Assembly: GCA_018992565.1 (NCBI GenBank)
Contig: JACVGW010000001.1
Location: 36,712 to 100,711, forward strand
Origin: Theionarchaea archaeon
GTDB taxonomy: Archaea; Methanobacteriota_B; Thermococci; Methanofastidiosales; SZ-28-30
Direction: 5' to 3'
DNA: 64,000 nucleotides
Shown here one piece after another: positions 444 through 43,359 of the stretch. The notes beneath the pieces were generated by a model. That model was not told the origin of the DNA. It saw only the letters and a list, made by a program, of their open reading frames with translations, and did not search any database. Positions within the stretch are counted from its first letter, which is position 1. Every line of letters begins with the position of its first letter. The translations under genes and the position numbers were made by a program.

Positions 444-651
444 GTCCTTTTCTGTGATCCACTATATCCTGCAGTGTCCTCGTAACAAGGGTAGAACACC
501 TGGTGAGACCCAGAAGATCAATGATTGATGGTCAGAATACCAATCTGTGTCGTCTCTATAGAGCAAATACCCCCTTCTTGGTGGTTTCACCTAAGGCCAC
601 CTCCTTCAGCTGCTACTTCTCAGCTGAAATCATGGACAATTTGCATAGATT

Positions 652-24464: not shown

Positions 24465-25928
24465 CTAGTACGTGAATTTTCTCCTGACTATGAGCCTCAG
24501 CAGCATGAGTACGGGGATGATTTCCAATCTTCCTATCCACATATTGAACATGAGAGTGGCTTTGTTGAGTGTCCCCATCCAGGGACCGGTAATTCCAGTG
24601 GAAAGCCCCACATTTCCCTGCGCTGATGCCACTTCAAAAATCACATCCCCCAGAGTATATTGAGGGGGAACAGTCTGCAGGAGCACCAGAACTCCCATGA
24701 GAAGGAAAACCAGCCACAAGAAAGAAATGAGGCCAGCTTCTGCCACTTCTTCATTCGCTTCATCGGGCGACAGTGACTTTGAACCCAGTTTATGGGAAAT
24801 GATCGCCGTGGGGGAAAGAGAAACTTTCCTGAACTTCCATACCACTCCCTTGTACAAGAGGATTACTCTGATTAGTTTTATTCCTCCCACTGTAGACCCT
24901 GCTGCCCCTCCAATGATCATGGCTAGAGAAAGAATGAGTTTTGAAGACTCATTCCATATCTGCACGTTGGCCGTCTGAAACCCAGTGCAGGTCAGTGCAG
25001 AAAAAACCTGGAAACTTGAAAACCTGAAGGATGAGGAAGCAGCACCATATGTTTGCATGTTCACATAGGCTAAGAAGGCAATAGCTGTTCCAGCAATCAA
25101 AAAATATGCTCTGTTTTGGGGATCGGTGAAGAAAACTTTGTAATTTACCCTAATCATTCGATAGTGAACCACAAAGGAGACTGCACCTGCTGTCATAATA
25201 GGGATGAGTGCGTAATCAATGAGAGGAGAATCATAGGTGCCAATGCTGTTGTCAACCACAGAGAATCCACCAGTGGCAATTCCAGTCATGGAATGGTTTA
25301 TGGCATCCCAAAGAGGCATCCGGCACAGCCACAGCAGAAATACTCCCAACACAGTATAAATGAGGAATATCTTCCAGATGGTCTTCACTGTGGACACAAT
25401 TGAAGGATGTATCTTCTCTACCCGACCTTCTGATTTGTAGAGAGAATATGCTCCTGTCCCGGGCCTGGCCAGGATAGAAATCATCAACACAATGACGCCG
25501 ACTCCCCCGATCCACTGCATGAGAGACCTCCAGAATTGAATGCTGTGGGAGAGGAGGTCTTCCCTGATCACCATAGTCAGTCCAGTTCCACTCCACCCAG
25601 ACATACACTCAAACATGCAATCAATAAACGGCATTTTCTCTATGAAAAAAATCGGTATAGTGCTGTAAAGAGGGACGATAACCCACGCCAGAGCAGCCAC
25701 AATCATGGCATGCCTGGTCCTTGGCTCTTCTTCCACCCGCACTGAAAGCAGGACCATGGAAGACAGAAATGCCAATCCACTGGTCAGCAGGAAGTACCAG
25801 ACAGCGTGGAATTCCCCAAATATCACGGGTATGAGTATGGCAAAGAAGGTCACAAAGGAGAAGATGCGAAGGATCCTGCCTAGCTCTTCAAGAATGATCC
25901 GAACATCAGAGGCGAGTATCCCCTTCAT
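24465..25928 (-). CDS. trkH: TrkH/KtrB-family K+ transporter membrane subunit (copy 1)
   Basis: Polytopic protein with repeated selectivity-filter-like GTGLT/TGGFS/CTGFQ/NVGLSTG segments. The start was moved to the Met just after the trkA stop. Confidence 0.8.
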   Translation of the reverse strand: MKGILASDVRIILEELGRILRIFSFVTFFAILIPVIFGEFHAVWYFLLTSGLAFLSSMVLLSVRVEEEPRTRHAMIVAALAWVIVPLYSTIPIFFIEKMPFIDCMFECMSGWSGTGLTMVIREDLLSHSIQFWRSLMQWIGGVGVIVLMISILARPGTGAYSLYKSEGRVEKIHPSIVSTVKTIWKIFLIYTVLGVFLLWLCRMPLWDAINHSMTGIATGGFSVVDNSIGTYDSPLIDYALIPIMTAGAVSFVVHYRMIRVNYKVFFTDPQNRAYFLIAGTAIAFLAYVNMQTYGAASSSFRFSSFQVFSALTCTGFQTANVQIWNESSKLILSLAMIIGGAAGSTVGGIKLIRVILLYKGVVWKFRKVSLSPTAIISHKLGSKSLSPDEANEEVAEAGLISFLWLVFLLMGVLVLLQTVPPQYTLGDVIFEVASAQGNVGLSTGITGPWMGTLNKATLMFNMWIGRLEIIPVLMLLRLIVRRKFTY

Positions 25929-25932
25929 GGGA

Positions 25933-26592
25933 TCATCCCGTAAACAGCCTCGTGGTCTCTTCAATTCTCTTGGCTAAAACGAATACTGTCACTCTGTCCC
26001 CTTCTTTAATCACAGTGTCTCCTCTGGGAATGATAATTCCATCATCCCGGGCAATGGCCACTATCAAAGCATCTTTCTGAGCCAATCTCAGGCTGTCCAG
26101 CGTCTTACCAACCACGAAGGCTCTGTCTGTGACTACAATCTCGAAAATCTCCGCTTCACCGCCTCCAATACTCATGAAATCTCTAATGGACGGCCTTTGC
26201 AGTACACGATAGAGATACTCTGCCACTGCTGAAGAAGGATTCTCCATGACGTTAGCTCCAATCCTTCTGAACATCAAAGCATGCTCAGGCTGGGAAACCA
26301 GCGACACCAGCGACTGGATCTTCAATTCCTTGCCTACCAGAATAGTGAGAAGGTTTACTGCATCATCTTTAGTGGTGGCGGCCAGAGCATCGGCTCTGCG
26401 GGCTCCCGCATCCTCCAGGATGGATTTGATGGTAGAATCCCCACATATAGCCATTATATCATATTTTTCTGCAATTTCATTGCACTTCGCCTCATCCTTG
26501 TCCACAATTACGACATTATGTCCTCTTTCTGTGGTGATTTTCACAAGGCTCTCGCCTACGCTTCCAGCTCCAACCACAATAATATACATCAC
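25933..26592 (-). CDS. trkA: TrkA/KtrA K+ uptake regulatory subunit (RCK N and C domains), copy 1
   Basis: Rossmann motif IIVVGAGSVG is followed by a TrkA_C-like C-terminal domain. Confidence 0.8.
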   Translation of the reverse strand: MMYIIVVGAGSVGESLVKITTERGHNVVIVDKDEAKCNEIAEKYDIMAICGDSTIKSILEDAGARRADALAATTKDDAVNLLTILVGKELKIQSLVSLVSQPEHALMFRRIGANVMENPSSAVAEYLYRVLQRPSIRDFMSIGGGEAEIFEIVVTDRAFVVGKTLDSLRLAQKDALIVAIARDDGIIIPRGDTVIKEGDRVTVFVLAKRIEETTRLFTG

Positions 26593-26745
26593 ATTGGCAT
26601 AAATCGGGGAACTTATAAAGGTAAGGTTTCAAGAGAACAGAGAAAACAGCATGGTCAGAAAAGACCATGCGGTGAACAGCAATCCTCATATACTGCAGGT
26701 CAGCAATTTCAGTATGATTTCCTGCGAACTCACAAGAGTGTCAAC

Positions 26746-28089
26746 ATGGAGATGGTTCATATGAACAGACTCATTGGAAAAGTGAAGCCAATCCAGTTCC
26801 TGGTTATAGGATATATTGCGATCATCTGCATAGGTTCCTTGTTCCTGTATTTGCCTGCTGCTTCCTCTGCAGGTACATCTCAGGACTATGTGGACGCATT
26901 GTTCACAGCCACCTCAGCAGTCTCCACCACGGGGCTGGTAGTGGTGGATACAGGTACCTTCTACTCAGGGTTCGGGCAGTTCATTATTCTGCTCCTGTTC
27001 CAGATTGGAGGGCTGGGATATATGGTATTCGTAGTGTTTATGGTATATGCACTGGGCAGAAAACCATCTCTTACCAGTGCTGTTACACTGCAGCAGTCAC
27101 TCTCCGGGGTTACGCTGGGGAACATGAAGCAGTATCTCAAAGCAGTACTTGTTTTCACACTACTCTTTGAGGGGCTGGGAGCACTTGTTCTCAGTATCTA
27201 CTGGATGGATCGATTCACTCCATCAGAGGCAGTTTTTCTTGGAGTCTTTCATTCAGTGTCAGCGTTCTGTACCTCAGGATTTTCCATATTTTCTGACAGT
27301 TTCAACTCGTATCAAACCAGTGTTTTCATGAATGTGGTGCTCGGCATATTGTGCATTGGAGGGGGAATTGGGTTCATTGTACTCTCTGATCTGCAGAACC
27401 TGGTGAGAAAGAGGATTTCCGGGGTGAGACCCTGCAGGCTGTCACTTCATAGCAATATGTCACTGTTGATTTCTGCGCTGTTAATGATGACTGGAGCTTT
27501 CGTCTTGATGAGTCAGGAATCCAGTATCCCTCTATCAGACAGAATGCTACCTTCTCTGTTCCAGTCAGTTTCAGCCTCCAGTACTACAGGATTCAATACA
27601 GTGGATATTGGGGCGTTGACCACAAGCAGTCTGTTCATGCTGGCTATTTTAATGGCTATTGGTGCGTCTCCAGGAGGAAGTGGAGGAGGGATCAAGGTTA
27701 CAGCTGTGGGTTCCATGATGCTTTCAGTATGGGCTCTCTTGAGAGGAAGAAAGGAGGTCAAGGCCTTTGGATGGCAGATCCCCGAGGAAACAGTAAGAAG
27801 ATCTTTTGCCGTGGCTACACTGGTTGCAATATGGGTGATTCTGGTGACCATGGTTCTTTCTGCCACAGAAGACGGCACATTCATGCAGGTCCTCTTTGAG
27901 GTGATATCTGCTGTAGGAACAGTAGGACTTACCACAGGGCTGACCCCTATGCTCACTTCTCTGGGGAAAGTGCTGATCATCACAACTATGCTGATTGGAC
28001 GGGTGGGTCCTCTCGCTATTGCATTCACAGTATTGGGAGAAGAGAAAGCGTCTTTCGAGCATGCAGAAGGAGAAATATATATCGGATAA
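26746..28089 (+). CDS. trkH: TrkH/KtrB-family K+ transporter membrane subunit (copy 2)
   Basis: Filter-like segments are TTGLVV, CTSGFS, STTGFN and TVGLTTG. The ORF-track N-terminal extension (26281-26745) is antisense to trkA and was rejected. Confidence 0.8.
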   Translation: MEMVHMNRLIGKVKPIQFLVIGYIAIICIGSLFLYLPAASSAGTSQDYVDALFTATSAVSTTGLVVVDTGTFYSGFGQFIILLLFQIGGLGYMVFVVFMVYALGRKPSLTSAVTLQQSLSGVTLGNMKQYLKAVLVFTLLFEGLGALVLSIYWMDRFTPSEAVFLGVFHSVSAFCTSGFSIFSDSFNSYQTSVFMNVVLGILCIGGGIGFIVLSDLQNLVRKRISGVRPCRLSLHSNMSLLISALLMMTGAFVLMSQESSIPLSDRMLPSLFQSVSASSTTGFNTVDIGALTTSSLFMLAILMAIGASPGGSGGGIKVTAVGSMMLSVWALLRGRKEVKAFGWQIPEETVRRSFAVATLVAIWVILVTMVLSATEDGTFMQVLFEVISAVGTVGLTTGLTPMLTSLGKVLIITTMLIGRVGPLAIAFTVLGEEKASFEHAEGEIYIG

Positions 28090-28100
28090 GAGGTGAAGCA

Positions 28101-28751
28101 ATGAAGCAATTCGTCGTAATAGGATTGGGAAGGTTTGGAATGAATCTGGCTGCCGCTTTAGCTGAAGCAGGACATGAAGTCTTGGTCATTGACGAAGACA
28201 AAAAGAAGATCGAGGCAATCAAAGAGAAGGTGACCCACGCAGTCGTAGCAGACGCTACAGATAAACAGGTCATATCTGAGTTCGTTACAGCAGATGTGGA
28301 CACCGTTGTTGTGGGAGTGAATGAAAGCATGGAAGCCAGTACTCTGGCCACATTGTACCTCAAAGAGATGGGAGTCAAAGAAGTCATTGTAAAAGCAACC
28401 AGTGATGACCATGCCAAGATATTGAAGGCCTTGGGGGCCACAGAGATAATTTATCCAGAAAAAGATGTAGCATTGAGGCTGGCTGAGAGGTTGAGTACTC
28501 CAAATCTGATTGAACATCTTCCCCTTACTCCTGAGTACAGTATTGTGGAAATTACTCCTCCTGAAGACTTTCTGGGAAAAACCCTGCGGAGCCTCGAACT
28601 ACGGAAAGAATATGGAATCGTGGTAATTGCAGTAAAAGACATGCTCACCAATACCTTCCACTTGATTCCTGGAGGAGAGTATGAAATCCGAGCAGATACT
28701 GCCCTCATAATCATAGGGAAGAAGTCTGATATCGAGAAACTGGATGTATGA
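28101..28751 (+). CDS. trkA: TrkA/KtrA K+ uptake regulatory subunit, copy 2
   Basis: Rossmann motif VVIGLGRFG. SD AGGTGA lies 4 nt upstream. A TrkA_C-like tail is present. Confidence 0.8.
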   Translation: MKQFVVIGLGRFGMNLAAALAEAGHEVLVIDEDKKKIEAIKEKVTHAVVADATDKQVISEFVTADVDTVVVGVNESMEASTLATLYLKEMGVKEVIVKATSDDHAKILKALGATEIIYPEKDVALRLAERLSTPNLIEHLPLTPEYSIVEITPPEDFLGKTLRSLELRKEYGIVVIAVKDMLTNTFHLIPGGEYEIRADTALIIIGKKSDIEKLDV

Positions 28752-29302
28752 AGCGGGTGAAACGATTGGAAATAGAAGTAAAATCCAGAGCTTGCACACT
28801 GGAGGAAGTGGAGGAGAGACTTTTGGCCATGGGGGGTGCATTTGTTGACGAGGTTATCCAGAAAGATACATATTTTAACCATCCCTGCAAAAATTTTGAA
28901 ACGACTGATGAGGCGGTTCGAATCCGGGTCTCCAATGACCGCTCTTATCTTACGTACAAGGGAAAAAAGGTGGATCCTGAAAGCAAGACTCGGGACGAAA
29001 TTGAAATCCTTATTGAAGATTCAGAGAAAGGAAAAGAAATCCTCAAATCCCTGGGCTTCATAGAAGTTGCCATTGTTGCAAAGACTCGGAGAGTGTATAG
29101 TCTGGATGAGTTCTCCGTATGCCTGGACACGGTAGACAAACTGGGAACCTTTGTGGAAGTAGAGGGATATCTGGGTGGGAACCCTGAACTTGTCCACTGT
29201 GAAAAGCTGCGCGACAAGGCTTTGAACCTGCTGAATGAGCTGCACCTCACTGACTGTGAGCGAAGATCATATCTAGAATTGCTTCTTGAGCAGGAAGAAT
29301 GA
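28748..29302 (+). CDS. CYTH-domain protein (class IV adenylyl cyclase / triphosphate tunnel metalloenzyme)
   Basis: It has the N-terminal EIEVK motif, the pattern RIR....YLTYKG and the C-terminal FVEVEG. Its start overlaps the trkA stop (ATGA). Confidence 0.75.
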   Translation: MKRVKRLEIEVKSRACTLEEVEERLLAMGGAFVDEVIQKDTYFNHPCKNFETTDEAVRIRVSNDRSYLTYKGKKVDPESKTRDEIEILIEDSEKGKEILKSLGFIEVAIVAKTRRVYSLDEFSVCLDTVDKLGTFVEVEGYLGGNPELVHCEKLRDKALNLLNELHLTDCERRSYLELLLEQEE

Positions 29303-32841: not shown

Positions 32842-33585
32842 TTACAGATAGTCAATAATACTGGCAATGATCCTGTTTTCACCTTCAGCCAGCTGTTCAT
32901 AGACAGTGGCTGGTGACAGCCCCAATTCATCTGCCAGATCTTTGATGCGTGCTCTCTTGGGTATCTCGAAATACCCTCTCAAGTATGCTCTTTTCAGTGT
33001 TCGCAACTGCTTCTCAGAAAGCAGCCCTTTCAACTCTACAACATTAATGAAAAAGGAGTCATCCACATGTTCGAGGGGATGGACTGCTGTTATCTTCACT
33101 TCTCCAATATTCTGAAGCATCTCTACCACATTCCGCAGTTTGTCAGCATCTGGGGCCAGAATCCTGTAGTGCTTGGCTCCTTTGCAGGTGACAATAGGAT
33201 TGGGAAGAAGGTAGTAACATCCTCCTCTGGAGAGAATGTCATGAACTTTGTATCTATTCTCACACCGGCACACACTCTGAACAACAATTTCATTCTGATT
33301 TTGGGAGAAGATGTCAAGTGATACAAGAGTGTCATCAGCTCTGGCCTTTTCAAGCGCTGCTCGAAGCTGAAGGGAGTCCTCACATTCCCATCGAGAAAGG
33401 CCCTTTTCCTGATGAATAGAAAAAACAGTCATGGTGATATCCGGAAACTCCTGTGAAAGCTTCTGGGCCCAGCAGCGCTCTGGTTTTATCTGGAAGCTTG
33501 CTTCTATCATGCACCTAACATATTTGGTCTGCATAAAAGGATTGTCATGAAAGAAGAGGTTATGTGACACAGGGGCAGCCTCCAA
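32842..33585 (-). CDS. HTH_10 (Bat-type) transcriptional regulator
   Basis: The C-terminal block LSEKQLRTLKRAYLRGYFEIPKRARIKDLADELGLSPATVYEQL is the HTH_10 signature. The true start may be the internal ATG at 33534. Confidence 0.65.
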   Translation of the reverse strand: MEAAPVSHNLFFHDNPFMQTKYVRCMIEASFQIKPERCWAQKLSQEFPDITMTVFSIHQEKGLSRWECEDSLQLRAALEKARADDTLVSLDIFSQNQNEIVVQSVCRCENRYKVHDILSRGGCYYLLPNPIVTCKGAKHYRILAPDADKLRNVVEMLQNIGEVKITAVHPLEHVDDSFFINVVELKGLLSEKQLRTLKRAYLRGYFEIPKRARIKDLADELGLSPATVYEQLAEGENRIIASIIDYL

Positions 33586-33588
33586 ACC

Positions 33589-33598
33589 TTTTTATAAT
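33589..33598. promoter_or_regulatory. Shared AT-rich TATA-like element between divergent genes
   Basis: TTTTTATAAT sits in the 22-nt gap between the maximal ORFs of the HTH_10 gene and the 908-aa gene. This implies that both real starts lie further inside (ATG 33534 and ATG 33647). Confidence 0.3.
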
Positions 33599-33607
33599 CA
33601 TGAAAGA

Positions 33608-36334
33608 ATGAGAAAATCCTCAACAGAAATCCTGTGGTGGTATGAGATGTACAAAGGATATCCTATTTGTCTCGAGGAAGACGATGGGACAGTTTCAGTG
33701 CTGCGTCTGAAACTTGAACCGCTGGACAAGATACGCCTACATGAAGAGGTCATCCCTGAGGCGTTTAGAAAAATCTGTAAGGCGATATGTGAAGAAAAAG
33801 TCCTTCAGGATCCAATCTTCGTTGACGAGCAGTCAAAAGTCATACTGGATGGAATGCACAGGGCTGCAGCGCTGCTCATGCTACAGTCAGGAGACTGCAA
33901 AAACCTTTTCTGGGACGAGACTGAGAAGCATTACACGTATTCGCAGTGCGAGAACTGCTCCGGCAAATTCAAGAATCTGGAGTACATTTTGTGCTGCTCC
34001 CTAGACTACGTCAACAGCAAGGCTGTGACACTGAAAAAGTGGTATCGAGGAGTTGACTTCCCTTTTGAAACAGCAATTGAGCTTTTGAAAACCAGGTATG
34101 CCATGCGAGAACAGACGGGAAAAAACGCATCTCTTCTGAAGGAAGACGCTTTTGCAGTCTTGACTGATGGAAAGAGATACGTCTCTCTCTCCGCTGGTTT
34201 TGACACAACGCTGGACAAATACATGTCTCTCCGAGACGTGGAATCCCTGATACGGGAAAATGGGGGTCACATTATGTACTGTGCTGATGAAGAAGCATAT
34301 TCGCTGCTGGAGCAGAAGAAGTTCTCATTTCTGATGATAACACCTACCATAACTCGTGAGGATGTGCAGACCTTTTCCAAGCCAGGACTTCCTGAAAAAG
34401 GAGAAGTCTTCCCTCCGAAATCTACGCGTCATCGTCTTGCCGCACGCCCTCTCAAGATCAACATTCCGCTCAGGTTACTGGAAAAGGGAGAGTATCAATT
34501 CAAACAGGAACAACTCAAAGTGTTCTTGAGAAGAAAGCGTAAATTGACTGTAACAGGCAGGCTGGAGCAATACCTGGAGAAACATAAGATACTGTTTGGA
34601 GAACCTGCAGAGTTGAAAGAACCTCTGGAAACCCCGTATCTGTGGATATGTGAATTCCCTCTGGAATTCTATGAGATTAAATACGATGTGGACCAGTTCA
34701 CTGAAGCTGTGTCTGCAGACTTGATACAGAAGGGGATGGAATTGGCATATTCTGCCTTGATCAGGGAGACCAATCGCCTGCTGCTTATTATTTCTGGTGT
34801 GAAAGATGAAATAAAGACTGAAGAGAGACTTATGTCCTTAATGGTTTCCCATTTTCCAGGTTACAAGATGAAGAACTTATTCGGCCACAGGAAGAACGGG
34901 TCCCCAGTGTGGATGATTCCTATGGAAGACTGTACTCCTTCGAGAGCCTATTTTGAACGCAACGAGAGGTTATTGAGAAAGCTGGTGAGGACTCACAATG
35001 CTGTGCAATCTGGGAGAGGAGGATTCCAGCAGGCTCTCACCAGCGCATACACGGATATCATGGTGACACATAGCTCACAGGAGCTTCTCCTCTTATTTGC
35101 CTTTCATGTCCTGGATAGCGCACCGCGGTGCAAAGTGTTTGAATATCTCCACGAGGACATTGATGACCACCAGAAGGTTTTCTCAGGAATAGAGACACTC
35201 AGGAAGAAAGGACTTCTTTCCTTGCATGACGGAGAGATTGAGCTCACTGAAAATGGTAAAGAAGTCATCACAGGGGCTCTCGCTGCCACCGGGGAACTCA
35301 CCAGCCTTTTGAGGGAGCTGTCCACAGACAAGTTCACTGGCTTTCTGAGAAAAATCGATTCAAACGTAACTCATGTCATAAAACCTGATGGCAGAAAAGA
35401 TGAGTTTCATATTGGAAGTATCATGGAATCATTGATCTTCACCGATATGGGGTGGAGAAAGGTGGCAGATGTTCTGGACAGGGTTGCAGAGGAGTTCGAG
35501 AATGTTGATTTTGTCTCTTCTGATGAGCTAACAAGCTTTGTGCAACGATACCTGGAAGAAGAACATCCACTGAGTAATGTGCCTTCCAGATACGACTATT
35601 TCATTAATTCGAGAGATCACATCTTCTCCAGAGGAGCCAGAGTCACCTCCCTGTCTCGGAATCAGATTGAACAGGACATTGATGAATTCATCCCGGAGTG
35701 CCTTGAAATGAGTGCCAGTCAGAAATCTCAGCTCTCAAACATGATATATGAAGGAGTGAGGCTCCTGACTATTCCCCTGGTGAAGGAACTGTACGAAAAA
35801 GAGCAAATTGTATTTGAAAAGCACCTTCTCCATGAGATTGAGAAATTTCTGGTGGATCAGGCAGTTCCCATCCTTGGCAAGATCAGAGATAGTCCTTCCC
35901 AGGCAGTGATTGCATATGTGAAAGAGACTCTGAAAAAGGCAGATACCCATATTGAAATAAGCGAAGACCTGCTACAGAGAATGGACTCTGAGTTCATAAG
36001 GTACTATCTTTCAGCCATGGATGAATTGACAGAATCTGTTTCAGTGGGATTGGGTAAGGTGCCTTTCTTCAGTGTGTTTGGCAGGTTGAGCCAGCTGGCT
36101 CTCGTGGTGGGAGAGCCAGAAGCCACTCCACTCTACTTCGAGCTAGACAACCTCCGCCAGTTTCTCAGTCATATGAGAAGCGTTTTCAGGAGAGCTACTT
36201 CATTACTGGATCAGTGGCGTAGTTCATATGCTCTTGAAGAAAAGGCCATACTGAAGGGGCACAAGAAAGCCTGGGAGAGTCATCTGAGAGACGTGAAGGG
36301 ATTAATTGGAAGATGTGAAAAAGCCCTGCCCTGA
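33608..36334 (+). CDS. Large multidomain protein: N-terminal ParB/Srx-fold domain + winged helix + ATP-cone + helical C-terminal region
   Basis: The ParB-type block is LDKIRLHEEVIPEAFRKICKAICEEKVLQDPIFVDEQSKVILDGMHRAAAL, with DGxHR at about nt 33848-33862. The wHTH-like block VFEYLHEDIDDHQKVFSGIETLRKKGLLSLHDGEIELTENGKEV lies at about nt 35130-35270. The ATP-cone-like block HVIKPDGRKDEFHIGSIMESLIFTDMGWRKVADVLDRVAEEFENVDFVSSDELTSFVQRYLEEE lies at about nt 35368-35570. An alternative start is ATG 33647, after GGTGGT. Confidence 0.6.
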   Translation: MRKSSTEILWWYEMYKGYPICLEEDDGTVSVLRLKLEPLDKIRLHEEVIPEAFRKICKAICEEKVLQDPIFVDEQSKVILDGMHRAAALLMLQSGDCKNLFWDETEKHYTYSQCENCSGKFKNLEYILCCSLDYVNSKAVTLKKWYRGVDFPFETAIELLKTRYAMREQTGKNASLLKEDAFAVLTDGKRYVSLSAGFDTTLDKYMSLRDVESLIRENGGHIMYCADEEAYSLLEQKKFSFLMITPTITREDVQTFSKPGLPEKGEVFPPKSTRHRLAARPLKINIPLRLLEKGEYQFKQEQLKVFLRRKRKLTVTGRLEQYLEKHKILFGEPAELKEPLETPYLWICEFPLEFYEIKYDVDQFTEAVSADLIQKGMELAYSALIRETNRLLLIISGVKDEIKTEERLMSLMVSHFPGYKMKNLFGHRKNGSPVWMIPMEDCTPSRAYFERNERLLRKLVRTHNAVQSGRGGFQQALTSAYTDIMVTHSSQELLLLFAFHVLDSAPRCKVFEYLHEDIDDHQKVFSGIETLRKKGLLSLHDGEIELTENGKEVITGALAATGELTSLLRELSTDKFTGFLRKIDSNVTHVIKPDGRKDEFHIGSIMESLIFTDMGWRKVADVLDRVAEEFENVDFVSSDELTSFVQRYLEEEHPLSNVPSRYDYFINSRDHIFSRGARVTSLSRNQIEQDIDEFIPECLEMSASQKSQLSNMIYEGVRLLTIPLVKELYEKEQIVFEKHLLHEIEKFLVDQAVPILGKIRDSPSQAVIAYVKETLKKADTHIEISEDLLQRMDSEFIRYYLSAMDELTESVSVGLGKVPFFSVFGRLSQLALVVGEPEATPLYFELDNLRQFLSHMRSVFRRATSLLDQWRSSYALEEKAILKGHKKAWESHLRDVKGLIGRCEKALP

Positions 36335-36538
36335 TGTGATGGTGGCTAGTACGGTTCCTGCCATACAGAAGAGGCAAGATGAATGATGGGCTCAACGGCA
36401 TTATAGATTCACATGCACGATAACGTATTCGGACTGCAAGAGGGTATTCTACACTTCTCCAGAGGTTCTGGAAATCAACAGCTGTATTCGCAGAGGGTTC
36501 ACACTTCTTGTGATACTATGCTACAAATTCACACATAG

Positions 36539-36547
36539 ATATATAAA
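36539..36547 (+). promoter_or_regulatory. TATA-box-like element upstream of the KaiC-like gene
   Basis: ATATATAAA ends 34 nt upstream of ATG 36581. It lies within a 247-nt gap. Confidence 0.3.
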
Positions 36548-36580
36548 CTTATAAAGGGAACCTCATAAGGGTTGAATTCT

Positions 36581-37999
36581 ATGGGAAGGATCAGAATCCC
36601 TAGAGAGGTTGCTAACTTCCTGAAACAGGAAGGAAGTCAGAGACTGATTGTGAAAGGTGATGCAGGAACAGGTAAGACAATTTTTGTTCTGTCACTGCTG
36701 CGATATCTTTCACGCTACAGCCAGGGAGTCTATGTCTCCACTAGGGTAACCCATAAGGACATCTACCGGTATACCCCGTGGGTGAGAGACAAGATTCAGA
36801 AGGATAACATCATTGACGCTACAAACCCTCAGGGCACGCTCTTGTCTATGGAATCTGAGTTGAAGTACAACAGCGCAGGTGACTTTGTAAAGATCATAGC
36901 TGACAAGTGCCGGCTTCTGGAAGTCCTAGACATGAAATACGGTTGCGTGATCATTGATTCCTGGGAATCTCTGGTGGCCAATATCCCATATCCTCGAACT
37001 GATGGTGGAATTCAGTTGGAACGGACTTTGATAGATCTTTCCAAAGAAATGAATGTCAACCTCATTCTCACCCTGGAAACCACGGCCAGCACCCGGCTGG
37101 ACTATGTGGCAGATGGCGTGGTCTCCATGGAAAAAGAACTCATCAATGAAAACAGAATCCGCACCATGCGACTGAAAAAACTGAGAGGGGTCAAGATTAC
37201 AAACCCTGTCTATCCTTTTACGTTGGACGGTGGGAAATTTCAGGTTCTGGAACCTGAGCCCATATACTTCGAACCCAAGAAGTCCAAGCGATTGAGGAGG
37301 ATACGACCTCCCACACCTAACCATGTCTCCTCGGGGATCAGAGACTTTGATGGGCTGCTGGGAAGTGGTCTCAAGAAAGGCAGCCTGAACCTCTTGGAGG
37401 TGGGAAAGGGATTGGGATTTTCTTACATTCCTTTTGTCACCATTTCTGTCATCAATGCCTTGAATACTGGAATGAGCGCCATTGTAGCAGTACCTGAAGG
37501 GATCAACTTCTCATTATTGAAGGAACGGCTGGTTGGGCCGTTCGTTAAGCCTGAATTGTACAGCAATGCACGGGTGGTGGAGGAGACATACATGCCTGAA
37601 AATGAACTCCCTTCTGAAGTCACTCCATTGAGAATTGCCAGAACACACAAGGATTTTCTTGATCTCCTGGAAGCACTGAGAGAGAGACTGCAGCGTCCGA
37701 CTCTGCAGATCATAGGAATGGACAACGTGGAACACAAGTATGGATTCTCCAATATCCAGAGTGACCTTGGAAGAGTCTCGTCTCAAAACAGGAGCTCCCA
37801 GGACATAACAGTGCTGGTTGCAAAAGAAGGACAGCAAATCACTCCCCACCTGGGCCACATATGCGACACACACTGGAGACTGGAGACCATTAGCAAATGT
37901 CTCTTCATGGAAGGCATCATACCCAAGACAGGTCTCTATCATATACATTTTTACGATTCCACGTCAGGTCCTGCAGCCCGGCTGACTCCTCTTCTCTGA
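36581..37999 (+). CDS. Two-domain KaiC/RecA-superfamily ATPase (first P-loop intact, second degenerate)
   Basis: Domain 1 has Walker A GDAGTGKT and Walker B-like CVIIDSWE. Domain 2 begins with the KaiC-type SGIRDFDGLLGSGLKKGSLNLLEVG, but GKGLGFSY replaces the P-loop. Confidence 0.65.
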   Translation: MGRIRIPREVANFLKQEGSQRLIVKGDAGTGKTIFVLSLLRYLSRYSQGVYVSTRVTHKDIYRYTPWVRDKIQKDNIIDATNPQGTLLSMESELKYNSAGDFVKIIADKCRLLEVLDMKYGCVIIDSWESLVANIPYPRTDGGIQLERTLIDLSKEMNVNLILTLETTASTRLDYVADGVVSMEKELINENRIRTMRLKKLRGVKITNPVYPFTLDGGKFQVLEPEPIYFEPKKSKRLRRIRPPTPNHVSSGIRDFDGLLGSGLKKGSLNLLEVGKGLGFSYIPFVTISVINALNTGMSAIVAVPEGINFSLLKERLVGPFVKPELYSNARVVEETYMPENELPSEVTPLRIARTHKDFLDLLEALRERLQRPTLQIIGMDNVEHKYGFSNIQSDLGRVSSQNRSSQDITVLVAKEGQQITPHLGHICDTHWRLETISKCLFMEGIIPKTGLYHIHFYDSTSGPAARLTPLL

Positions 38000-38036
38000 C
38001 CACAAGACTTATATTTGGCTATCTGTAGGTGTTCGT

Positions 38037-40142
38037 ATGCCTGGAAAAGTTATCCCTCTGATGCTTTTGTCTCTCCTGGTCCTAGCCGCTGCAGATGGGG
38101 TTTTCGAGCAAAAAGAAACCCATGACTTGAGCAAGCACATGTCAACATTGCTCAGCCTGTGGGCAGGGGACATAGATGCTGATCGTACAGCAGAAATACT
38201 GGCAGGAGGTATCATCTACGAAGGAGCCATTTCAAAAGGTATTCTTGTCCAGATTAAGCGAAATGATATCTCTATTCTTGCAAAAATCCCCTCCACGTCC
38301 AGGACTGTCGTTATTACAGTGTGTGATGCTACTGCTGATACTGGCCAAGAGATAGTTGTGGGAGCCAATGACCTGTACGTGTACACGAGGGGGGGAAAAT
38401 TGTTGACCACAAAGCCAGTGGGAGGAGATGTAACTGCAGTCCAGGCACTAGACACTGGAGACTCCCCCCTCAGTGAAATCATATGTGGGACTTCATCGGG
38501 GGAGGTATTGTATTTTGTTAATCTGGAAACCAAGGCACAGGTTTCTGTAATGAAGTCAGTAACTCAGATTCTGAAAAGAGACGATGGGACTTTTTATGCC
38601 ATTGCAGGCCAGTCCATAAACTGTATCAGTACCGGCGGAGAGAAGCTGTGGCTGCATAATGCCCAGGGAGAGATAACAAGCGCAGCAGTATATGACATGG
38701 ATGGAGATACTGTCAATGAGCTCATATATGTTGCAGGACCCAGCATCTATACCCTCTCTTCTGACGGGAAGAAAGAGACCCTGCTCATGACACCTTCCAA
38801 CCATCCCCTCTCTCTTCTAGTAAAGGATTTCACAGAGGACGGTAAGCCAGACCTCGTGGTGGCCGACAGCAAGGACAGCGTTGCCGTCTATTCTAACCTG
38901 AAGCAGCAGGTTGAATCCCTTTTTTTCAGAAGGGAAGCAGGTGAAATTCCTCTTCTGTTTGCTGCAAACGTGGCAGGAGACCAAAAGACTGACCTTGTCT
39001 ATGGAGGGGTGACGAAAGTCCATGTTCTGGAAAACATCATACCGTCGGCAGAATTGGTCACAAGAGGACAGCAGGTGCTCAGTGAAGGGAAAGGACTCCT
39101 GGAAGAAAGGGAATATGAGAGAGCAAAATCCAAATTCGAAGAGGCAGAAAGAATATTTTCTCTGGGAGGAGAAGAGAGACTGGCAGCAGAATGTCAAGCA
39201 TATATCGAGGAGATCACAGCACTATTAAAAAGGAAATCACAAGCAGAAAATGCCATAAAAGAAGGGAAAGATTTGTTTTCGCAGGGAGAATATGAAAAAG
39301 CCAAGATCCAGTTTGAACTTGCAGCCCAGGAATATGGGCTGCTGGCAGGCCAGGATTCTTACTACCAACCCTATGCAGAAGAGGCACGAACGCTTGTGAA
39401 TCAATGTGATGAGGCCATAGCAGATCGCTATTTTGACGCTGGAATGGAATATCTCAGCAACAGTCAGTATGATGGGGCCAGGGAGTATTTTGAAGCTGCG
39501 GAGGCTATTTATTCTCAAATTGGCAGCAAAAAGGCTGAACTGTGCCTTGAAAAGATCCAGCAGATCGAAGATGAGCTGGGAAGGAAACCGATAGAAAAAG
39601 ACATGACAATATTCTTCTATGCAGGGGTAGTACTCCTTATTGCTGCTGTCGTGGTGATATTGTTTGCCACCAGGAAGAAAGTGTCCACAAAATTGGAGAA
39701 GGGTCGTCTGTACCTCCTGCTTGAGCCACAGCCCAAGAAAGCTCTCCAGCTGATCAAAGAGTATGGAAGGATAGGATATGAAGGTCTGGTGATCAGCAGA
39801 CTTCCAGCCGAGCAACTGCGGAAGAAAAAGCTGAAGAAACAAAAAATACTACAGTTTTCAAGCACCAGCAAGGAGGACAGCATTCCTCCAGACAACGTAG
39901 TTAATATACTGCTTGGCATGAAGGAGTTCATGACTAGCAGAGACAGCAGCATCATACTGCTGGATAGTCTGGATTACCTTATCATCCAGAACTCTTTTGA
40001 AGATGCATTCAGTCTCATCCAGAAATTGGCGGAATCAGTGACGCTGTATAAAGGCATTGTCCTGGCAGTATTGAATCCCAAGAGCGTGGAAGAGAGAGAA
40101 CTTGTTCTTCTGGAAGGAGAAATGGAACTTCTGGAAATATGA
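38037..40142 (+). CDS. Receptor-like protein: signal peptide + FG-GAP/VCBS beta-propeller + TPR-like repeats + TM helix + cytoplasmic DUF835
   Basis: The signal peptide is MPGKVIPLMLLSLLVLAAADG. FG-GAP-like motifs are DIDADRTAEILAGG, DMDGDTVNELIYV, DFTEDGKPDLVVAD and AGDQKTDLVYGG. Three G..L...gEYE.AK..FE.A repeats follow. The TM helix is IFFYAGVVLLIAAVVVILFA. The DUF835-like tail is GLVISR...ILLDSLDYLIIQNSFEDAFSLIQKL...AVLNPKSVEERELVLLEGEM. Confidence 0.6.
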   Translation: MPGKVIPLMLLSLLVLAAADGVFEQKETHDLSKHMSTLLSLWAGDIDADRTAEILAGGIIYEGAISKGILVQIKRNDISILAKIPSTSRTVVITVCDATADTGQEIVVGANDLYVYTRGGKLLTTKPVGGDVTAVQALDTGDSPLSEIICGTSSGEVLYFVNLETKAQVSVMKSVTQILKRDDGTFYAIAGQSINCISTGGEKLWLHNAQGEITSAAVYDMDGDTVNELIYVAGPSIYTLSSDGKKETLLMTPSNHPLSLLVKDFTEDGKPDLVVADSKDSVAVYSNLKQQVESLFFRREAGEIPLLFAANVAGDQKTDLVYGGVTKVHVLENIIPSAELVTRGQQVLSEGKGLLEEREYERAKSKFEEAERIFSLGGEERLAAECQAYIEEITALLKRKSQAENAIKEGKDLFSQGEYEKAKIQFELAAQEYGLLAGQDSYYQPYAEEARTLVNQCDEAIADRYFDAGMEYLSNSQYDGAREYFEAAEAIYSQIGSKKAELCLEKIQQIEDELGRKPIEKDMTIFFYAGVVLLIAAVVVILFATRKKVSTKLEKGRLYLLLEPQPKKALQLIKEYGRIGYEGLVISRLPAEQLRKKKLKKQKILQFSSTSKEDSIPPDNVVNILLGMKEFMTSRDSSIILLDSLDYLIIQNSFEDAFSLIQKLAESVTLYKGIVLAVLNPKSVEERELVLLEGEMELLEI

Positions 40143-40780
40143 ATGGGTTGACCATGAAAGGAATAGTCCTGATGTCAGGAGGCATCGATTCTCCTGTGGC
40201 TGCCTACTTGATGGCGAATTACGACCTGATAGCACTTCACTGTGACAATAACCCGTATACTGAAGGTGCGAAACAGGCTGCTGCAGCAGTCACCGCTCGA
40301 TTGGAAGATGTTCTGAAGAAGGAAATTCCATTCTTCGTTGCTCCTCACGGCGAAGTATTAACCGAGTTCCTCAGAGTATGCGAGGCTGAAGGCCGGAAAT
40401 ATACCTGCCTCTTTTGCAAGCGTATGATGTTCAGGGTGGGTGAAAGGATTGCCCTGGATATGGGGGGCGATTTCCTGGTTACTGGAGAGAATCTCGGCCA
40501 GGTGGCATCTCAGACACTCCAGAATATTCTTGTAACCTCACGGGCAGTCCAGATCCCCATAGTACGTCCAGTCATTGGGCTGGATAAACTGGATATCATC
40601 AGCATTGCTGAGACGGTTGGCACATATGAAATCTCAACAGGAAAGGCTGCAACCTGCCGCGCTGTTCCCCGTTATCCCGCCACCCGAGCACAACTGCATA
40701 CAGTGGAAGCTCTTGAGAAGCGTCTCCCCATTGAACGCCTTGTTTCACGTGCTGCAGAAGCCGCGGAAGAAGCCCATTGA
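40139..40780 (+). CDS. ThiI-like PP-loop sulfurtransferase domain protein (no THUMP domain)
   Basis: Motifs SGGIDSPVAAYL, CLFCKRMM and TGENLGQVASQTLQN...RPVIGLDKLDII are present. The start overlaps the upstream stop (ATGA). Confidence 0.7.
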   Translation: MNGLTMKGIVLMSGGIDSPVAAYLMANYDLIALHCDNNPYTEGAKQAAAAVTARLEDVLKKEIPFFVAPHGEVLTEFLRVCEAEGRKYTCLFCKRMMFRVGERIALDMGGDFLVTGENLGQVASQTLQNILVTSRAVQIPIVRPVIGLDKLDIISIAETVGTYEISTGKAATCRAVPRYPATRAQLHTVEALEKRLPIERLVSRAAEAAEEAH

Positions 40781-40848
40781 GGGCCTCTGGAAGTGCAGGC
40801 TTTCACAGGCGGCAGAAGAATTATAAGACCTCGCCCGTACGTTATCAT

Positions 40849-42231
40849 ATGAATGAAGTGGAGACTTCTATTTTGGACTGCAATTCCAGGTACTTTGGCT
40901 TTGACACTCTCCAGCTTATGGAGAATGCAGGAAGAAGTGTGGCACAGGAGATTGAGAATCGGTATTCACATGATAATAAAATAGGCATTTTTTGCGGAAG
41001 AGGGAATAATGGGGGAGATGGATTTGTGGCTGCACGATTCCTGGCAGAGCACAATGACGTCACTGTCTATCTGGTGGGATCACCAAGAGATATATATACT
41101 GAAGAAGCACGGAAAAACTATTCCATTTTGAAGAATACGTCTGTGAAGAGTCAGATCATCCTGGATACAAAAACCATACAGATCGCTAAGCATGACATCA
41201 TTGTGGATGCACTTCTTGGAACAGGTATCCAGGGAGAACTGCGAGAGCCCTACCGAACACTGGTTGAAAAGATGAATGCATGTCCTGCAGCGAAAGTCTC
41301 AGTAGATATTCCCACAGGATACAACACGTCAGTCCAGATAGCAGCAGATCTCGTCATCTCCATGCACTACGAGAAAGTCCCTTCATGTGTGGTTGCTACC
41401 ATAGGAGTTCCCACCCAAATTGAATCACTGGTTGGCCCGGGTGATGTGAGATTCCTAAAACGGAGAAAGAACGATTCACACAAGGGGGACAATGGGAGAG
41501 TACTCATTGTTGGGGGCTCAGAGCTCTACCATGGGGCACCTGTCTATTCCGGCACAGCAGCTTCCAAGATTTCAGACCTTGTCTTTATTGCGTGCCCCCG
41601 GTCTGCAGCTCCCGTAATTAAAGGGGCTACCCCAGATTTCATAGTCCACCCTCTCTCTTCAGAGTATCTGGTACCTGAAGATGTCTCCACACTCGAGGAT
41701 CTTGCTGAATCCTGCGACATTGTCCTCATCGGGCCCGGGCTGGGAATCCATCCGAAGACCCAGAAGGCCTGCCAGAGCCTGTTTGCACTCGATATTCCCA
41801 AGGTGATAGATGCAGATGGACTCAAAGCACTGAAAGGAATGGTTGATGTACTAGCTCCTCCTGCTGTTCTAACGCCTCATCATGGGGAATTCGCCCACGT
41901 ATTCGGCACTCAGTCGGTACAGGATGCGGCTCGAGAACATGCCTGTATTATCGTCCAGAAAGGTGTCACTGACGTTATCACCACTGGAACTCGCACCAAG
42001 TACAATCATACAGGAAATGCAGGGATGACCACAGGAGGGACGGGGGACATTCTCGCAGGTCTCATTACAGGGTTCGGTGCGGTCAATGACTTGTTCCAGG
42101 CCTCATGTGCTGCAGCCTTTGTTAGTGGAATGGCGGGAGATCGCTGTTACCAGAAGATGGGGTTTCACTACTCGGCTTCTGATGTACTGGACCAGCTGCA
42201 ACCTACCTTACAGTGGTGCGAGACATTCTGA
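40849..42231 (+). CDS. nnr: Bifunctional NAD(P)H-hydrate repair enzyme (YjeF_N epimerase + carbohydrate-kinase-like dehydratase)
   Basis: The N domain has GRGNNGGDGFVAARFL. The C domain has HKGDNGRVLIVGGS..YHGAP and GTGDILAG. The start was moved to ATG 40849. Confidence 0.8.
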   Translation: MNEVETSILDCNSRYFGFDTLQLMENAGRSVAQEIENRYSHDNKIGIFCGRGNNGGDGFVAARFLAEHNDVTVYLVGSPRDIYTEEARKNYSILKNTSVKSQIILDTKTIQIAKHDIIVDALLGTGIQGELREPYRTLVEKMNACPAAKVSVDIPTGYNTSVQIAADLVISMHYEKVPSCVVATIGVPTQIESLVGPGDVRFLKRRKNDSHKGDNGRVLIVGGSELYHGAPVYSGTAASKISDLVFIACPRSAAPVIKGATPDFIVHPLSSEYLVPEDVSTLEDLAESCDIVLIGPGLGIHPKTQKACQSLFALDIPKVIDADGLKALKGMVDVLAPPAVLTPHHGEFAHVFGTQSVQDAAREHACIIVQKGVTDVITTGTRTKYNHTGNAGMTTGGTGDILAGLITGFGAVNDLFQASCAAAFVSGMAGDRCYQKMGFHYSASDVLDQLQPTLQWCETF

Positions 42232-43359
42232 TTCTACTGCCTTCCGTATTTCTTCCAGATACTGATGGTAGGGATAGTATAGGGTGCAAGTATCAGGGTT
42301 ATAGCATTTGGTGTCTATAGTCTGCATCACCCAGAAAGATGCGGGAAACGATCTCAAAAAGTAGAATTTCTTGTCCTCTATCTCCACGTACCGATCCAGG
42401 TCCTGCAACAGCTTTATGAGAAAAGAGGGATGACAGACGCACTGCACTACGCCATAGTCCTGTCCTCCAGAAAAAGGAGTCCAGTAGGTCAATCGTTCCT
42501 GGATACGCACGTTTTTGCCAAAATTGAACAGGAGTCGATCGGTCTTTTCCCGATGACTGCTGCGCATTAACAGGATGAACCTGGAGCACTTCTCTCTCGG
42601 AATGGGATATACATTGTAATACTCCTCGATAATGTTGAGGTCAAGAAGCTTTCGGGCAGAAGACTTGAGCTCCGAATACGTGAGAAAGAGACCCTCCTTC
42701 TGTCGCTCATACTGACTGATCTTGCGCAGATTGCACTCCCCGATGCCCAGAAAGAGGTCCTCAATGAGGGAAAGATCACACGTAGTGAGAGATTCGCCAC
42801 AGAACTCACCAAGAGAAAGATCGGGCACCTCAGTCTCTTCCAACAACCTGTCCAGTGATGGAATGAGAGGGACTGGCTCATTCTTGTGGGTTACGAAGAG
42901 AGGATTTCTCAGATACCAGGAGGTCTTCTGCAAGTACAGGTCATAATGAACCAGAATATCACACTGCAAGAGATAGTCAAAAATCTCCTTGAGTTTTTCC
43001 TGATCAGAGCATACAAAGGAAGAGACCAGCATTCTAAAAGACTGTTCAAATACTGGATAGAGAGTGACAAAACAGCCGATCTTTTTTAGCAAATTAATGA
43101 CATATGGATAATCCCTGCGAAACATGAGCACTGCAATCATTCGACAGAGACGGTTCTTGGTAAATCGCCCCACATCCACATCGAAGTAAGGACCTGAGAG
43201 GTATCCTGCCTGTTTTAGCCTACGCTTTACCGCAGAAACATAGACTGAATTCTTGTAGTTTGAAAGAGTCGCCAGCCTTTCATTGGGAATATTCGGGTCT
43301 TTCGCCAAGCATTGTAGTATTAGTTTACGTCTCAACGGCAGATTGTCCTCAGTTTCCAT
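42208..43359 (-). CDS. Putative two-module winged-helix protein, distant paralogue of ORF 23477-24442
   Basis: The N-terminal block LRRKLILQCLAKDPNIPNERLATLSNYKNSVYVSAVKRRLKQAGYLSGP is HTH-like. A second HTH-like segment lies mid-protein. Confidence 0.4.
   Translation of the reverse strand: METEDNLPLRRKLILQCLAKDPNIPNERLATLSNYKNSVYVSAVKRRLKQAGYLSGPYFDVDVGRFTKNRLCRMIAVLMFRRDYPYVINLLKKIGCFVTLYPVFEQSFRMLVSSFVCSDQEKLKEIFDYLLQCDILVHYDLYLQKTSWYLRNPLFVTHKNEPVPLIPSLDRLLEETEVPDLSLGEFCGESLTTCDLSLIEDLFLGIGECNLRKISQYERQKEGLFLTYSELKSSARKLLDLNIIEEYYNVYPIPREKCSRFILLMRSSHREKTDRLLFNFGKNVRIQERLTYWTPFSGGQDYGVVQCVCHPSFLIKLLQDLDRYVEIEDKKFYFLRSFPASFWVMQTIDTKCYNPDTCTLYYPYHQYLEEIRKAVESECLAPL

Follow-up and report, generated by a model that had tools for sequence, protein, structure and literature searches.

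A SerK/SbnI-like fusion protein and a GvpD-type ATPase with its DUF835 receptor in Theionarchaea: probably two neighbouring units and not one pathway

Do three consecutive genes in a Theionarchaea chromosome, encoding a kinase-like fusion protein, a KaiC-like ATPase and a membrane receptor, form a single signalling pathway? The genes, called gene 1, gene 2 and gene 3 here, lie in a stretch of 64,000 nucleotides (nt) from assembly GCA_018992565.1 (contig JACVGW010000001.1, positions 36,712 to 100,711), which we refer to as the window and whose own numbering we use; a gene for an HTH_10-family regulator is transcribed divergently from the first of them. A preliminary description had read the three as an outside-in pathway in which the receptor signals through the ATPase to gene 1. 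Our analyses confirm the three consecutive plus-strand genes and nearly all of the domain calls. Of the proposed pathway, the receptor–ATPase half is supported, by the constant adjacency of genes 2 and 3 and the conservation of DUF835 and gene 2, and the link to gene 1 is not. We propose, with a probability of roughly 0.6, that the locus consists of two independent units of the core chromosome, and that the adjacency of genes 1 and 2 reflects lineage-specific synteny and not a conserved three-gene pathway. A three-gene unit is not supported because genes 1 and 2 are adjacent in just 6 of 13 lineages, because gene 2 appears to have an independent promoter, and because the families are not co-located outside the clade.

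The open reading frames (ORFs) occupy 33608–36334, 36572–37999 and 38037–40142 on the plus strand and 32842–33585 on the minus strand. With the starts argued for below and lengths in amino acids (aa), the principal features are:

32842–33510, minus strand: HTH_10-family regulator, 222 aa from M26 of the ORF (Pfam HTH_10, 1.1e-15; HVO_A0563_N, 5e-6)
33647–36334, plus strand: gene 1, an 895-aa fusion protein (NCBIfam, PDB, Foldseek, family alignment)
36496–36547, plus strand: predicted gene 2 promoter, a block conserved in nine lineages with either gene 1 or an aldehyde ferredoxin oxidoreductase (AFOR) gene upstream
36581–37999, plus strand: gene 2, a 472-aa GvpD-type double KaiC/RecA-like ATPase (Pfam, motifs)
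38037–40142, plus strand: gene 3, a 701-aa type I membrane receptor (Pfam, signal peptide, transmembrane helix)

Neighbourhoods were compared over 20 related loci, and the adjacency of genes 1 and 2 was counted over 13 gene 1 lineages; three further lineages (L099–L101) have only the gene 2 side, and there ferredoxin and AFOR genes precede the gene 2 block. Gene 2 follows gene 1 in the window, L003, L007, L096, L097 and L098, and does not follow it in L001, L005, L016, L017, L018, L019 and L022. A rough neighbour-joining tree indicates that the adjacency is old in part of the clade and has been lost at least twice. Gene 3 keeps its downstream genes, which encode a ThiI-like protein, Nnr, a 383-aa protein and FTCD, more stably than gene 1 keeps gene 2, and such background synteny of unrelated housekeeping genes carries more weight as evidence than an adjacency seen in one genome or even half a clade. 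Outside the clade, the co-location on which the preliminary description had relied does not appear: 81 non-Theionarchaea loci of SerK-like proteins of the gene 1 type (764 kb) contain no detectable relative of gene 2, gene 3 or the HTH_10 regulator.

What lies between genes 1 and 2? Conservation is lacking from the 5′ part of the 246-nt gap and sets in over the last ~85 nt, which are kept regardless of the gene upstream. This block contains an inverted repeat, GTTCACA-N5-TGTGA (TCACA-N5-TGTGA at 36499–36513), a third half-site, TCACACA (36529–36535), and a TATA box, ATATATAAA (36539–36547), about 38 nt before ATG 36581. The window, like each gene 2 locus, has a single copy of the palindrome, whose half-sites may resemble the Thermococcales TGM motif. 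These elements point to a conserved promoter of gene 2's own with a putative operator. The preliminary description had let its proposal hinge on regulation across this gap, which, given the independent gene 2 promoter, looks unrelated on the two sides at the sequence level. An operator common to both units was considered and rejected: the palindrome in front of the HTH_10 gene, ACCwAAyATATTwGG, differs from TCACA-N5-TGTGA, and each is a single site in the window. TCACA/TGTGA pentamers fall between the HTH_10 and gene 1 TATA boxes in three of ten lineages by eye, which is not above chance. A further TCACA-N5-TGTGA lies at 14553–14567 of L005/L006, ~165 nt upstream of a 365-aa gene whose product is a 25%-identical paralogue of the window's 383-aa protein; this copy may mark a small regulon.

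Gene 2 is one half of the proposed receptor–ATPase pair. Its start is ATG 36581 (MGRIRIP) in all nine lineages, the ORF opening at 36572. The protein matches Pfam GvpD_P-loop (2.9e-20; 73.4 bits against a cut-off of 24), KaiC (5e-14) and GvpD_bR2 (2.7e-8; 34.1 against 27.9), all above cut-offs. The N-terminal domain carries an invariant Walker A motif, GDAGTGKT, and a Walker B motif, VIIDSWE, and is predicted to be active; in the second domain, which matches GvpD_bR2, a conserved but degenerate LLEVGKGLGFSY takes the place of the P-loop. Pfam and motifs agree here with the initial call of a two-domain KaiC/RecA-type ATPase with a degenerate second P-loop. With 58.3 bits against the 408 of the circadian KaiC equivalog, and with one of its two P-loops degenerate, gene 2 is not a circadian KaiC. 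Identity within the clade is 76–96% for gene 2, 54–86% for gene 1 and 41–88% for gene 3. For gene 2 it falls to 32% in the closest relative outside the clade, from Methanolobus, which lies beside REC proteins and the archaellum operon; its REC neighbours are a signalling context for an ATPase of this kind. A second distant homologue has an unrelated gene context.

Gene 2 is joined to gene 3 and two further genes in a block with the following features, all on the plus strand:

38000–38036, plus strand: gene 2–gene 3 spacer of 37 nt, with an invariant TATA-like CTTATATTT (38008–38016) and an invariant Shine-Dalgarno AGGTG (38027–38031)
gene 3 residues 1–21, plus strand: signal peptide
gene 3 residues ~23–340, plus strand: FG-GAP/BBS-type beta-propeller
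gene 3 residues ~341–520, plus strand: TPR-like helical repeats
gene 3 residues 523–545, plus strand: transmembrane helix, followed by RKK and then by a conserved juxtamembrane linker
gene 3 residues 566–696 (39732–40124), plus strand: cytoplasmic DUF835 (inactivated KaiC, iKaiC)
40139–40780, plus strand: ThiI-like protein of 213 aa, a PP-loop domain only, without THUMP or ferredoxin-like N-terminus
40777–42231, plus strand: Nnr NAD(P)HX epimerase/dehydratase (YjeF_N plus carbohydrate kinase)

Genes 2 and 3 are neighbours in all lineages examined, separated by 37–38 nt; the 37 nt first noted for the window is correct. The spacer has 86% mean identity across eight lineages, above the coding identity of gene 3, which suggests that gene 3 is translated from a polycistronic mRNA, perhaps with an internal promoter in addition. 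The gene 3/ThiI-like and ThiI-like/Nnr junctions each have a 4-nt overlap of stop and start codons, so the ThiI-like and Nnr genes are probably part of the gene 2/gene 3 operon. All eight lineages read through to Nnr keep the order gene 2, gene 3, ThiI-like, Nnr, with a near-overlapping gene 3/ThiI-like junction (L098, which stops within gene 3, is outside this count). The probable operon combines the receptor/ATPase pair with two functionally unrelated proteins, a sulfurtransferase-type ATPase and an enzyme of NAD(P)HX repair. Convergent with Nnr in most related loci is the gene for the 383-aa protein (42208–43359, minus strand in the window), which has no Pfam or PADLOC match and is 72–89% identical among the loci; a conserved ORF of ~65 aa is divergent from it.

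Every part first called in the receptor, from signal peptide, FG-GAP propeller and TPR-like repeats to the single transmembrane helix and cytoplasmic DUF835, is borne out, with Pfam matches to DUF835 (1.2e-23; 83.9 bits against 33.1), FG-GAP_3, BBS2_Mid and TPR. Read from the sequence, residues 549–701 contain no GK[ST] motif. Mean majority-residue frequency is 0.86–0.88 in DUF835 and the juxtamembrane linker versus 0.61–0.68 in the ectodomain, and a DUF835 far more conserved than the ectodomain is the pattern expected if the signalling domain contacts a conserved partner. A Theionarchaea paralogue (P0248; L104 7001–9184) has a gene 3-like ectodomain (41% identity) with a cytoplasmic TIR_2 domain replacing DUF835, and sits near radical SAM/SPASM and HEPN/nucleotidyltransferase genes, not near a GvpD-like ATPase; this TIR-tailed form fits DUF835 as the element tied to gene 2. 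Galperin et al. 2018 (PMC5847659), who cite Makarova et al. 2017, list DUF835 among the KaiC-like domains that are inactivated; DUF835 also serves as the output domain of archaeal response regulators of REC-DUF835 type (PMC5847659). One Theionarchaea lineage encodes another DUF835 sensor (HisKA_7TM plus DUF835; L100 1–1147, minus strand) ~7 kb away from genes 2 and 3, and several DUF835 receptors may converge on KaiC-like ATPases.

The other unit comprises gene 1 and the HTH_10 regulator. Its further features, with gene 1 residues numbered throughout after the 908-aa ORF, are:

33513–33540, minus strand: predicted HTH_10 promoter, a palindrome and a minus-strand TATA-like box, conserved across ten lineages
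33582–33598, plus strand: predicted TFB recognition element (BRE) and TATA box of gene 1, CCAAACC TTTTTATAA in the window and CCAAAsC TTTTTATAA across the lineages, a nearly invariant alignment block
gene 1 residues ~14–310 (33647–34537), plus strand: SerK/SbnI-type ParB/Srx-fold kinase domain, with motifs E46, D81-G-M-H-R85 and K271-S-T-R-H275
between the kinase and ferredoxin-like domains of gene 1, plus strand: disordered linker
gene 1 residues ~344–440 (34637–34927), plus strand: ferredoxin-like alpha/beta domain (Foldseek matches to small ferredoxin-like folds)
gene 1 residues ~480–572 (35045–35323), plus strand: MarR-like winged helix (profile and fold)
gene 1 residues ~589–653 (35372–35566), plus strand: ATP-cone (sub-threshold in Pfam, recurrent in the family, fold)
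gene 1 residues 654–908, plus strand: alpha/beta region and helical bundle

Wherever a lineage offers enough sequence upstream of gene 1, the HTH_10 gene lies next to it in divergent orientation. The HTH_10 start is most likely at 33510, which gives 222 aa and matches the lengths of homologues (221–238 aa). The protein combines a weakly HVO_A0563_N-like N-terminal domain with a C-terminal HTH_10 domain, and Pfam found no PAS, GAF or BAT domain in it; it belongs to the HTH_10 family and lacks Bat architecture, so that the family and the divergent orientation given in the preliminary description are right and the Bat type is not. Nor do the divergent genes share a TATA-like element, as had been thought: two separate conserved TATA boxes, ~50 nt apart, serve them, that of the HTH_10 gene reading CATAAAAGG on the plus strand (33532–33540). 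Between this box and the HTH_10 start codon lies the palindrome ACCwAAyATATTwGG(T) (33513–33528), a single site in the window that matches on both strands since it is palindromic, and which occupies the same position in every locus with an exact match. Its placement predicts an operator of autoregulatory type and a leaderless mRNA. In L021 (716–750) a second copy of the promoter/operator (CAT...AACCTAATATATTTGG...ATAAAAGGATTTCCACA) precedes an apparent second HTH_10 paralogue that runs off the contig end, which would mean that the HTH_10 family has paralogues sharing the operator. In three lineages the DNA polymerase D genes, DP1 and DP2, are directly beside the HTH_10/gene 1 pair (L003 3992–8849, L005 3859–8584, L096 246–4959), and in L001 a PGK gene directly follows gene 1.

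The BRE/TATA block of gene 1 lies ~50 nt upstream of ATG 33647 and just 10 nt upstream of ATG 33608, and in the alignment the homologues start at MYKGYPICL. Together these place the start at ATG 33647, with ATG 33608 preceding the likely transcription start; the ORF first reported holds, and its 908-aa reading gives way to a protein of 895 aa. Pfam detects nothing in this protein at E < 0.01, and ParBc (PF02195) does not match even at E ≤ 10. The N-terminal part (residues 33–290) matches the NCBIfam models for SerK (1.5e-13), in Thermococcus kodakarensis the ADP-dependent free serine kinase TK0378, and for SbnI (3.5e-9), a staphylococcal protein named in its model as a bifunctional transcriptional regulator and free L-serine kinase. 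Sequence matches in the PDB are to SbnI, SerK and 1vk1 (phmmer 1e-7 to 1e-5). An AlphaFold model of gene 1 (pLDDT, the predicted local distance difference test, 69) retrieves the same group with Foldseek at E 1e-9 to 4e-7 and TMt, the TM-score normalised to the target, of 0.57–0.73; for 1vk1, 5x0k and 5uje specifically, the values are 1.8e-9 to 1.8e-7 and 0.65–0.73. The ParB/Srx-type block first noted is in this way a SerK/SbnI-type fold, recognised by NCBIfam, PDB sequence and Foldseek.

Is this domain an enzyme? E46 aligns with the catalytic glutamate (E30 in SerK, per the titles of the PDB mutant entries; E20 in SbnI), DGMHR with DGHHR/DGVHR, and FPPKSTRH with FSPKTTRH; E46, DGxHR and KSTRH are invariant or nearly so in 23 family members. 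With its motifs intact and conserved, the domain looks catalytically competent. Its scores are far under the equivalog cut-offs (SerK, 50.5 bits against 380; SbnI, 36.4 against 350), so it represents a separate subfamily and not a SerK equivalog; standalone SerK-like relatives also reach just 60–92 bits. A lineage-specific four-cysteine insertion (C97, C114-x2-C117 and C130, near-invariant; 33896–33997) is lacking from SerK, SbnI and the standalone relatives, and C57-x3-C61 is also nearly invariant; the insertion may form a metal or redox site.

The C-terminal module was modelled separately (residues 340–908, pLDDT 78). Its winged helix is MarR-like, which specifies the winged-helix-like segment seen earlier: the family profile retrieves 2x4h (5.2e-6), 2eth of the MarR family (6.6e-4) and HosA (2.4e-3) from the PDB, and Foldseek returns MarR-family matches with probability 1.0 and TMt ~0.5. 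The ATP-cone also appears to have been called correctly and is the weakest of the domain assignments. PF03477 is the top family at the same position in 10 of 17 fused and split members, with a best E of 3.7e-5, and the top Foldseek match of the separate model is 5im3, the Pseudomonas aeruginosa NrdA with tandem ATP-cones (E 3e-3, probability 0.99).

How did such a protein arise? An exhaustive profile search found the full-length architecture in one single 50%-identity cluster. The N-terminal part has hundreds of standalone SerK-like matches of 260–300 aa, and the C-terminal part a few standalone matches of ~600 aa (P0082, P0143, P0149). In four metagenomic loci (L025, L035, L075, L093) the next gene after a SerK-like gene, in the same orientation, encodes a C-module, and the stop codon of the first sometimes overlaps the start codon of the second. 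A scan with hidden Markov models found the two side by side in 12 of 57 testable loci (SerK-like, non-Theionarchaea, with at least 1.5 kb of downstream sequence), a Thermofilaceae metagenome-assembled genome (MAG) among them. What is encoded in other archaea by two neighbouring genes is fused in gene 1, and this occurrence in both split and fused form argues more strongly than anything else that kinase and winged-helix/ATP-cone module act jointly. In the literature searched, we found no description of the fusion or of its split relatives, which fall within the SerK/SbnI branch of the ParB/Srx fold. The neighbours of the split loci include PAP2, glycerophosphodiester phosphodiesterase (GDPD), type I phosphodiesterase, DHHA1 and UbiD genes. 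PAP2 phosphatases (twice, divergent), GDPD and type I phosphodiesterase adjoin the split pairs directly (L035 439–1038, L075 9311–9907, L093 3345–4058, L035 5498–7408), which hints at a link to the turnover of phospholipid head groups or phospho-metabolites.

In conjunction, these observations lead us to propose the following model of two units. In the first, the HTH_10 regulator and gene 1 would be expressed divergently, each from its own TATA box, with the regulator controlling its own gene. Gene 1, in the manner of SbnI, would join phosphorylation of a serine-like metabolite to DNA binding, and its ATP-cone would report adenine-nucleotide status to one or both of these activities. In the second unit, an operon of gene 2, gene 3, the ThiI-like gene and Nnr would be transcribed from its own promoter with a TCACA-N5-TGTGA operator. 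The propeller/TPR-like ectodomain of gene 3 would sense an extracellular signal and the cytoplasmic DUF835 would engage the GvpD-type ATPase encoded by gene 2. By analogy with the ATP-dependent removal of GvpE by GvpD, the ATPase would then act on some regulator, so that the output of this unit is probably a transcription factor.

Several points weigh against this two-unit model or its parts. The six lineages with adjacent genes 1 and 2 show four different upstream contexts, and some form of selection could underlie the adjacency. The three families coincide in a narrow phyletic range, and with no obvious oligo-T terminator in the gap between genes 1 and 2, read-through from gene 1 is possible. 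The ATP-cone family PF03477 reaches just 16.1–17.3 bits in the window protein against a cut-off of 25.8, and the family profile retrieved no ATP-cones from the PDB sequences. Our assignment of DUF835 as an inactivated KaiC domain follows PMC5847659; in our own profile comparison hhalign gave DUF835 and gene 2 a probability of 13%, which is not significant, with IILLDSLDYL set against the gene 2 Walker B stretch VIIDSWESL. Finally, an archaeal SerK-like protein has been reported to bind CTP and not ATP (PMC12704722).

It is conceivable that gene 1 is a metabolic kinase for serine or a related substrate, working in phosphoserine/cysteine metabolism, with a C-terminal part that is an allosteric or oligomerisation extension and a winged helix that does not bind DNA. 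The intact catalytic motifs agree with such a role, as do the metabolic function of SerK itself (PMC5120207), the classical use of ATP-cones as allosteric modules, and the PAP2, GDPD and phosphodiesterase genes near the split pairs and PGK after gene 1 in L001. We nevertheless consider it unlikely, for the protein falls far short of the SerK equivalog cut-off (50 against 380 bits), keeps its MarR-type winged helix in all fused and split forms and is constantly paired with a divergent transcription factor, and the model name of SbnI indicates that the fold can double as a regulator.

The pathway originally proposed, in which gene 3 would act through DUF835 on gene 2 and gene 2 on gene 1, with the HTH_10 protein as co-regulator or target, appears distinctly improbable in its full three-component form. 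Differing upstream genes in the six adjacency lineages, identical phyletic ranges, a gap without a clear terminator and the precedent of GvpD acting on a transcription factor all speak for it. They are outweighed, in our judgement, by the lack of adjacency in 7 of 13 gene 1 lineages and in the three further gene 2 lineages, with at least two losses; by a conserved and apparently independent gene 2 promoter and operator unlike that of the HTH_10 gene; by a synteny of housekeeping neighbours that is tighter than that of genes 1 and 2; and by split SerK-like/C-module pairs that elsewhere have no KaiC, DUF835 or HTH_10 neighbours. A variant would make gene 1 and its split relatives an archaeal regulatory class, a ParB/Srx-fold kinase plus winged-helix/ATP-cone module, that in Theionarchaea is also targeted by the receptor–ATPase pair in the style of GvpD and GvpE. 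If true, this would amount to a complete pathway from extracellular signal to transcription built on KaiC-like proteins; we give it little credence as well. That gene 1 is a ParB-like CTP-switch DNA clamp or nuclease for DNA segregation or defence is highly improbable: the ParB/Srx fold, the SerK homologue PF0380, for which nuclease activity was once reported, the DNA polymerase D genes beside the pair in three lineages and the CTP-binding SerK-like protein noted above (PMC12704722) are set against the missing PF02195 match, the presence of the SerK-specific C-subdomain and KSTRH motif, the lack of a ParA partner nearby, and a housekeeping chromosomal context in which PADLOC found nothing significant.

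The two-unit reading places the locus in the core chromosome, and the wider setting is ordinary. G+C content stays even at ~46% across the window, without the signature of an island. A hypothetical protein from a Theionarchaea MAG is 100% identical to gene 1, whose close relatives all come from Theionarchaea or Candidatus Methanofastidiosia. Upstream are ordinary chromosomal genes for two TrkH proteins, TrkA, a CYTH-domain protein, a methyltransferase and an MBL-fold protein, the two TrkH genes standing in opposite orientation and followed by TrkA and the CYTH-domain protein (24465–29302); downstream are the ThiI-like, Nnr, 383-aa and FTCD genes. An anti-phage defence system was considered and dropped: the best PADLOC match has an E of 8e-5 over 38 residues of a P-loop, and none of the rest falls below 1e-3. 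A structured RNA or riboswitch was likewise dropped, as Rfam at gathering thresholds gave no match anywhere in the window, the 246-nt gap included.

What is the relevance of these two units? Genes 2 and 3 add a pair to a predicted class of sensor–ATPase systems, for which we found almost no experimentally tested pairs in archaea, and theirs is a very conserved example with an evident extracellular sensor, a conserved putative operator and a conserved spacer. Gene 1 extends the SerK/SbnI branch of the ParB/Srx fold, and the repeated linkage of kinase and winged-helix/ATP-cone module, as operon or fusion in several archaeal lineages, suggests that the enzyme-plus-regulator logic of SbnI is more general. 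The latest survey of the ParB-CTPase fold searched by PF02195 (PMC12704722) and would have missed gene 1, which has no match to that family.

How do the two units compare with known systems? KaiC-like ATPases, which are abundant in archaea, were reportedly proposed by Makarova, Galperin and Koonin in 2017 as archaeal signalling hubs with inactivated-KaiC partners, and an active KaiC-family ATPase beside a protein with a DUF835 signalling domain, as predicted for genes 2 and 3, resembles such systems. The sensor of gene 3 differs in being a secreted FG-GAP propeller and TPR-like ectodomain on a single-pass protein, known from this clade only, and the pair is co-operonic with ThiI-like and Nnr genes. 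Gene 2 shares with GvpD a predicted active KaiC-like P-loop domain and a degenerate second domain with a bR2 region. It is, however, just 24% identical to a named GvpD (P0231), and a membrane receptor with DUF835 is its partner. Within ~10 kb in the window its neighbours are HTH_10, gene 1, gene 3, ThiI-like, Nnr, FTCD, Trk, CYTH and similar genes, with neither gvp genes nor GvpE among them, and nine related loci likewise show no gas-vesicle cluster. Titles cited in PMC4390858 indicate a P-loop-dependent reduction of the activator GvpE by GvpD, the activity on which our analogy draws.

For the putative ATP-cone of gene 1, the closest likeness is to those of NrdR and ribonucleotide reductases, in a segment of beta-hairpin and helices with a V-K-x-D/S-G-R-x-x-x-F signature. 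NrdR pairs an ATP-cone with DNA binding. Gene 1 differs from these proteins in having neither an NrdR-type zinc ribbon nor a reductase, and in its sub-threshold Pfam score. With SbnI and SerK the N-terminal domain shares the two-subdomain ParB/Srx-type fold and the aligned glutamate, DGxHR and K-S/T-T-R-H motifs, at ~19–20% identity; gene 1 adds to these the four-cysteine insertion and a C-module of ~570 aa that are lacking in both. SbnI, an enzyme and a regulator in one protein, offers the precedent for the combined function that we propose for gene 1.

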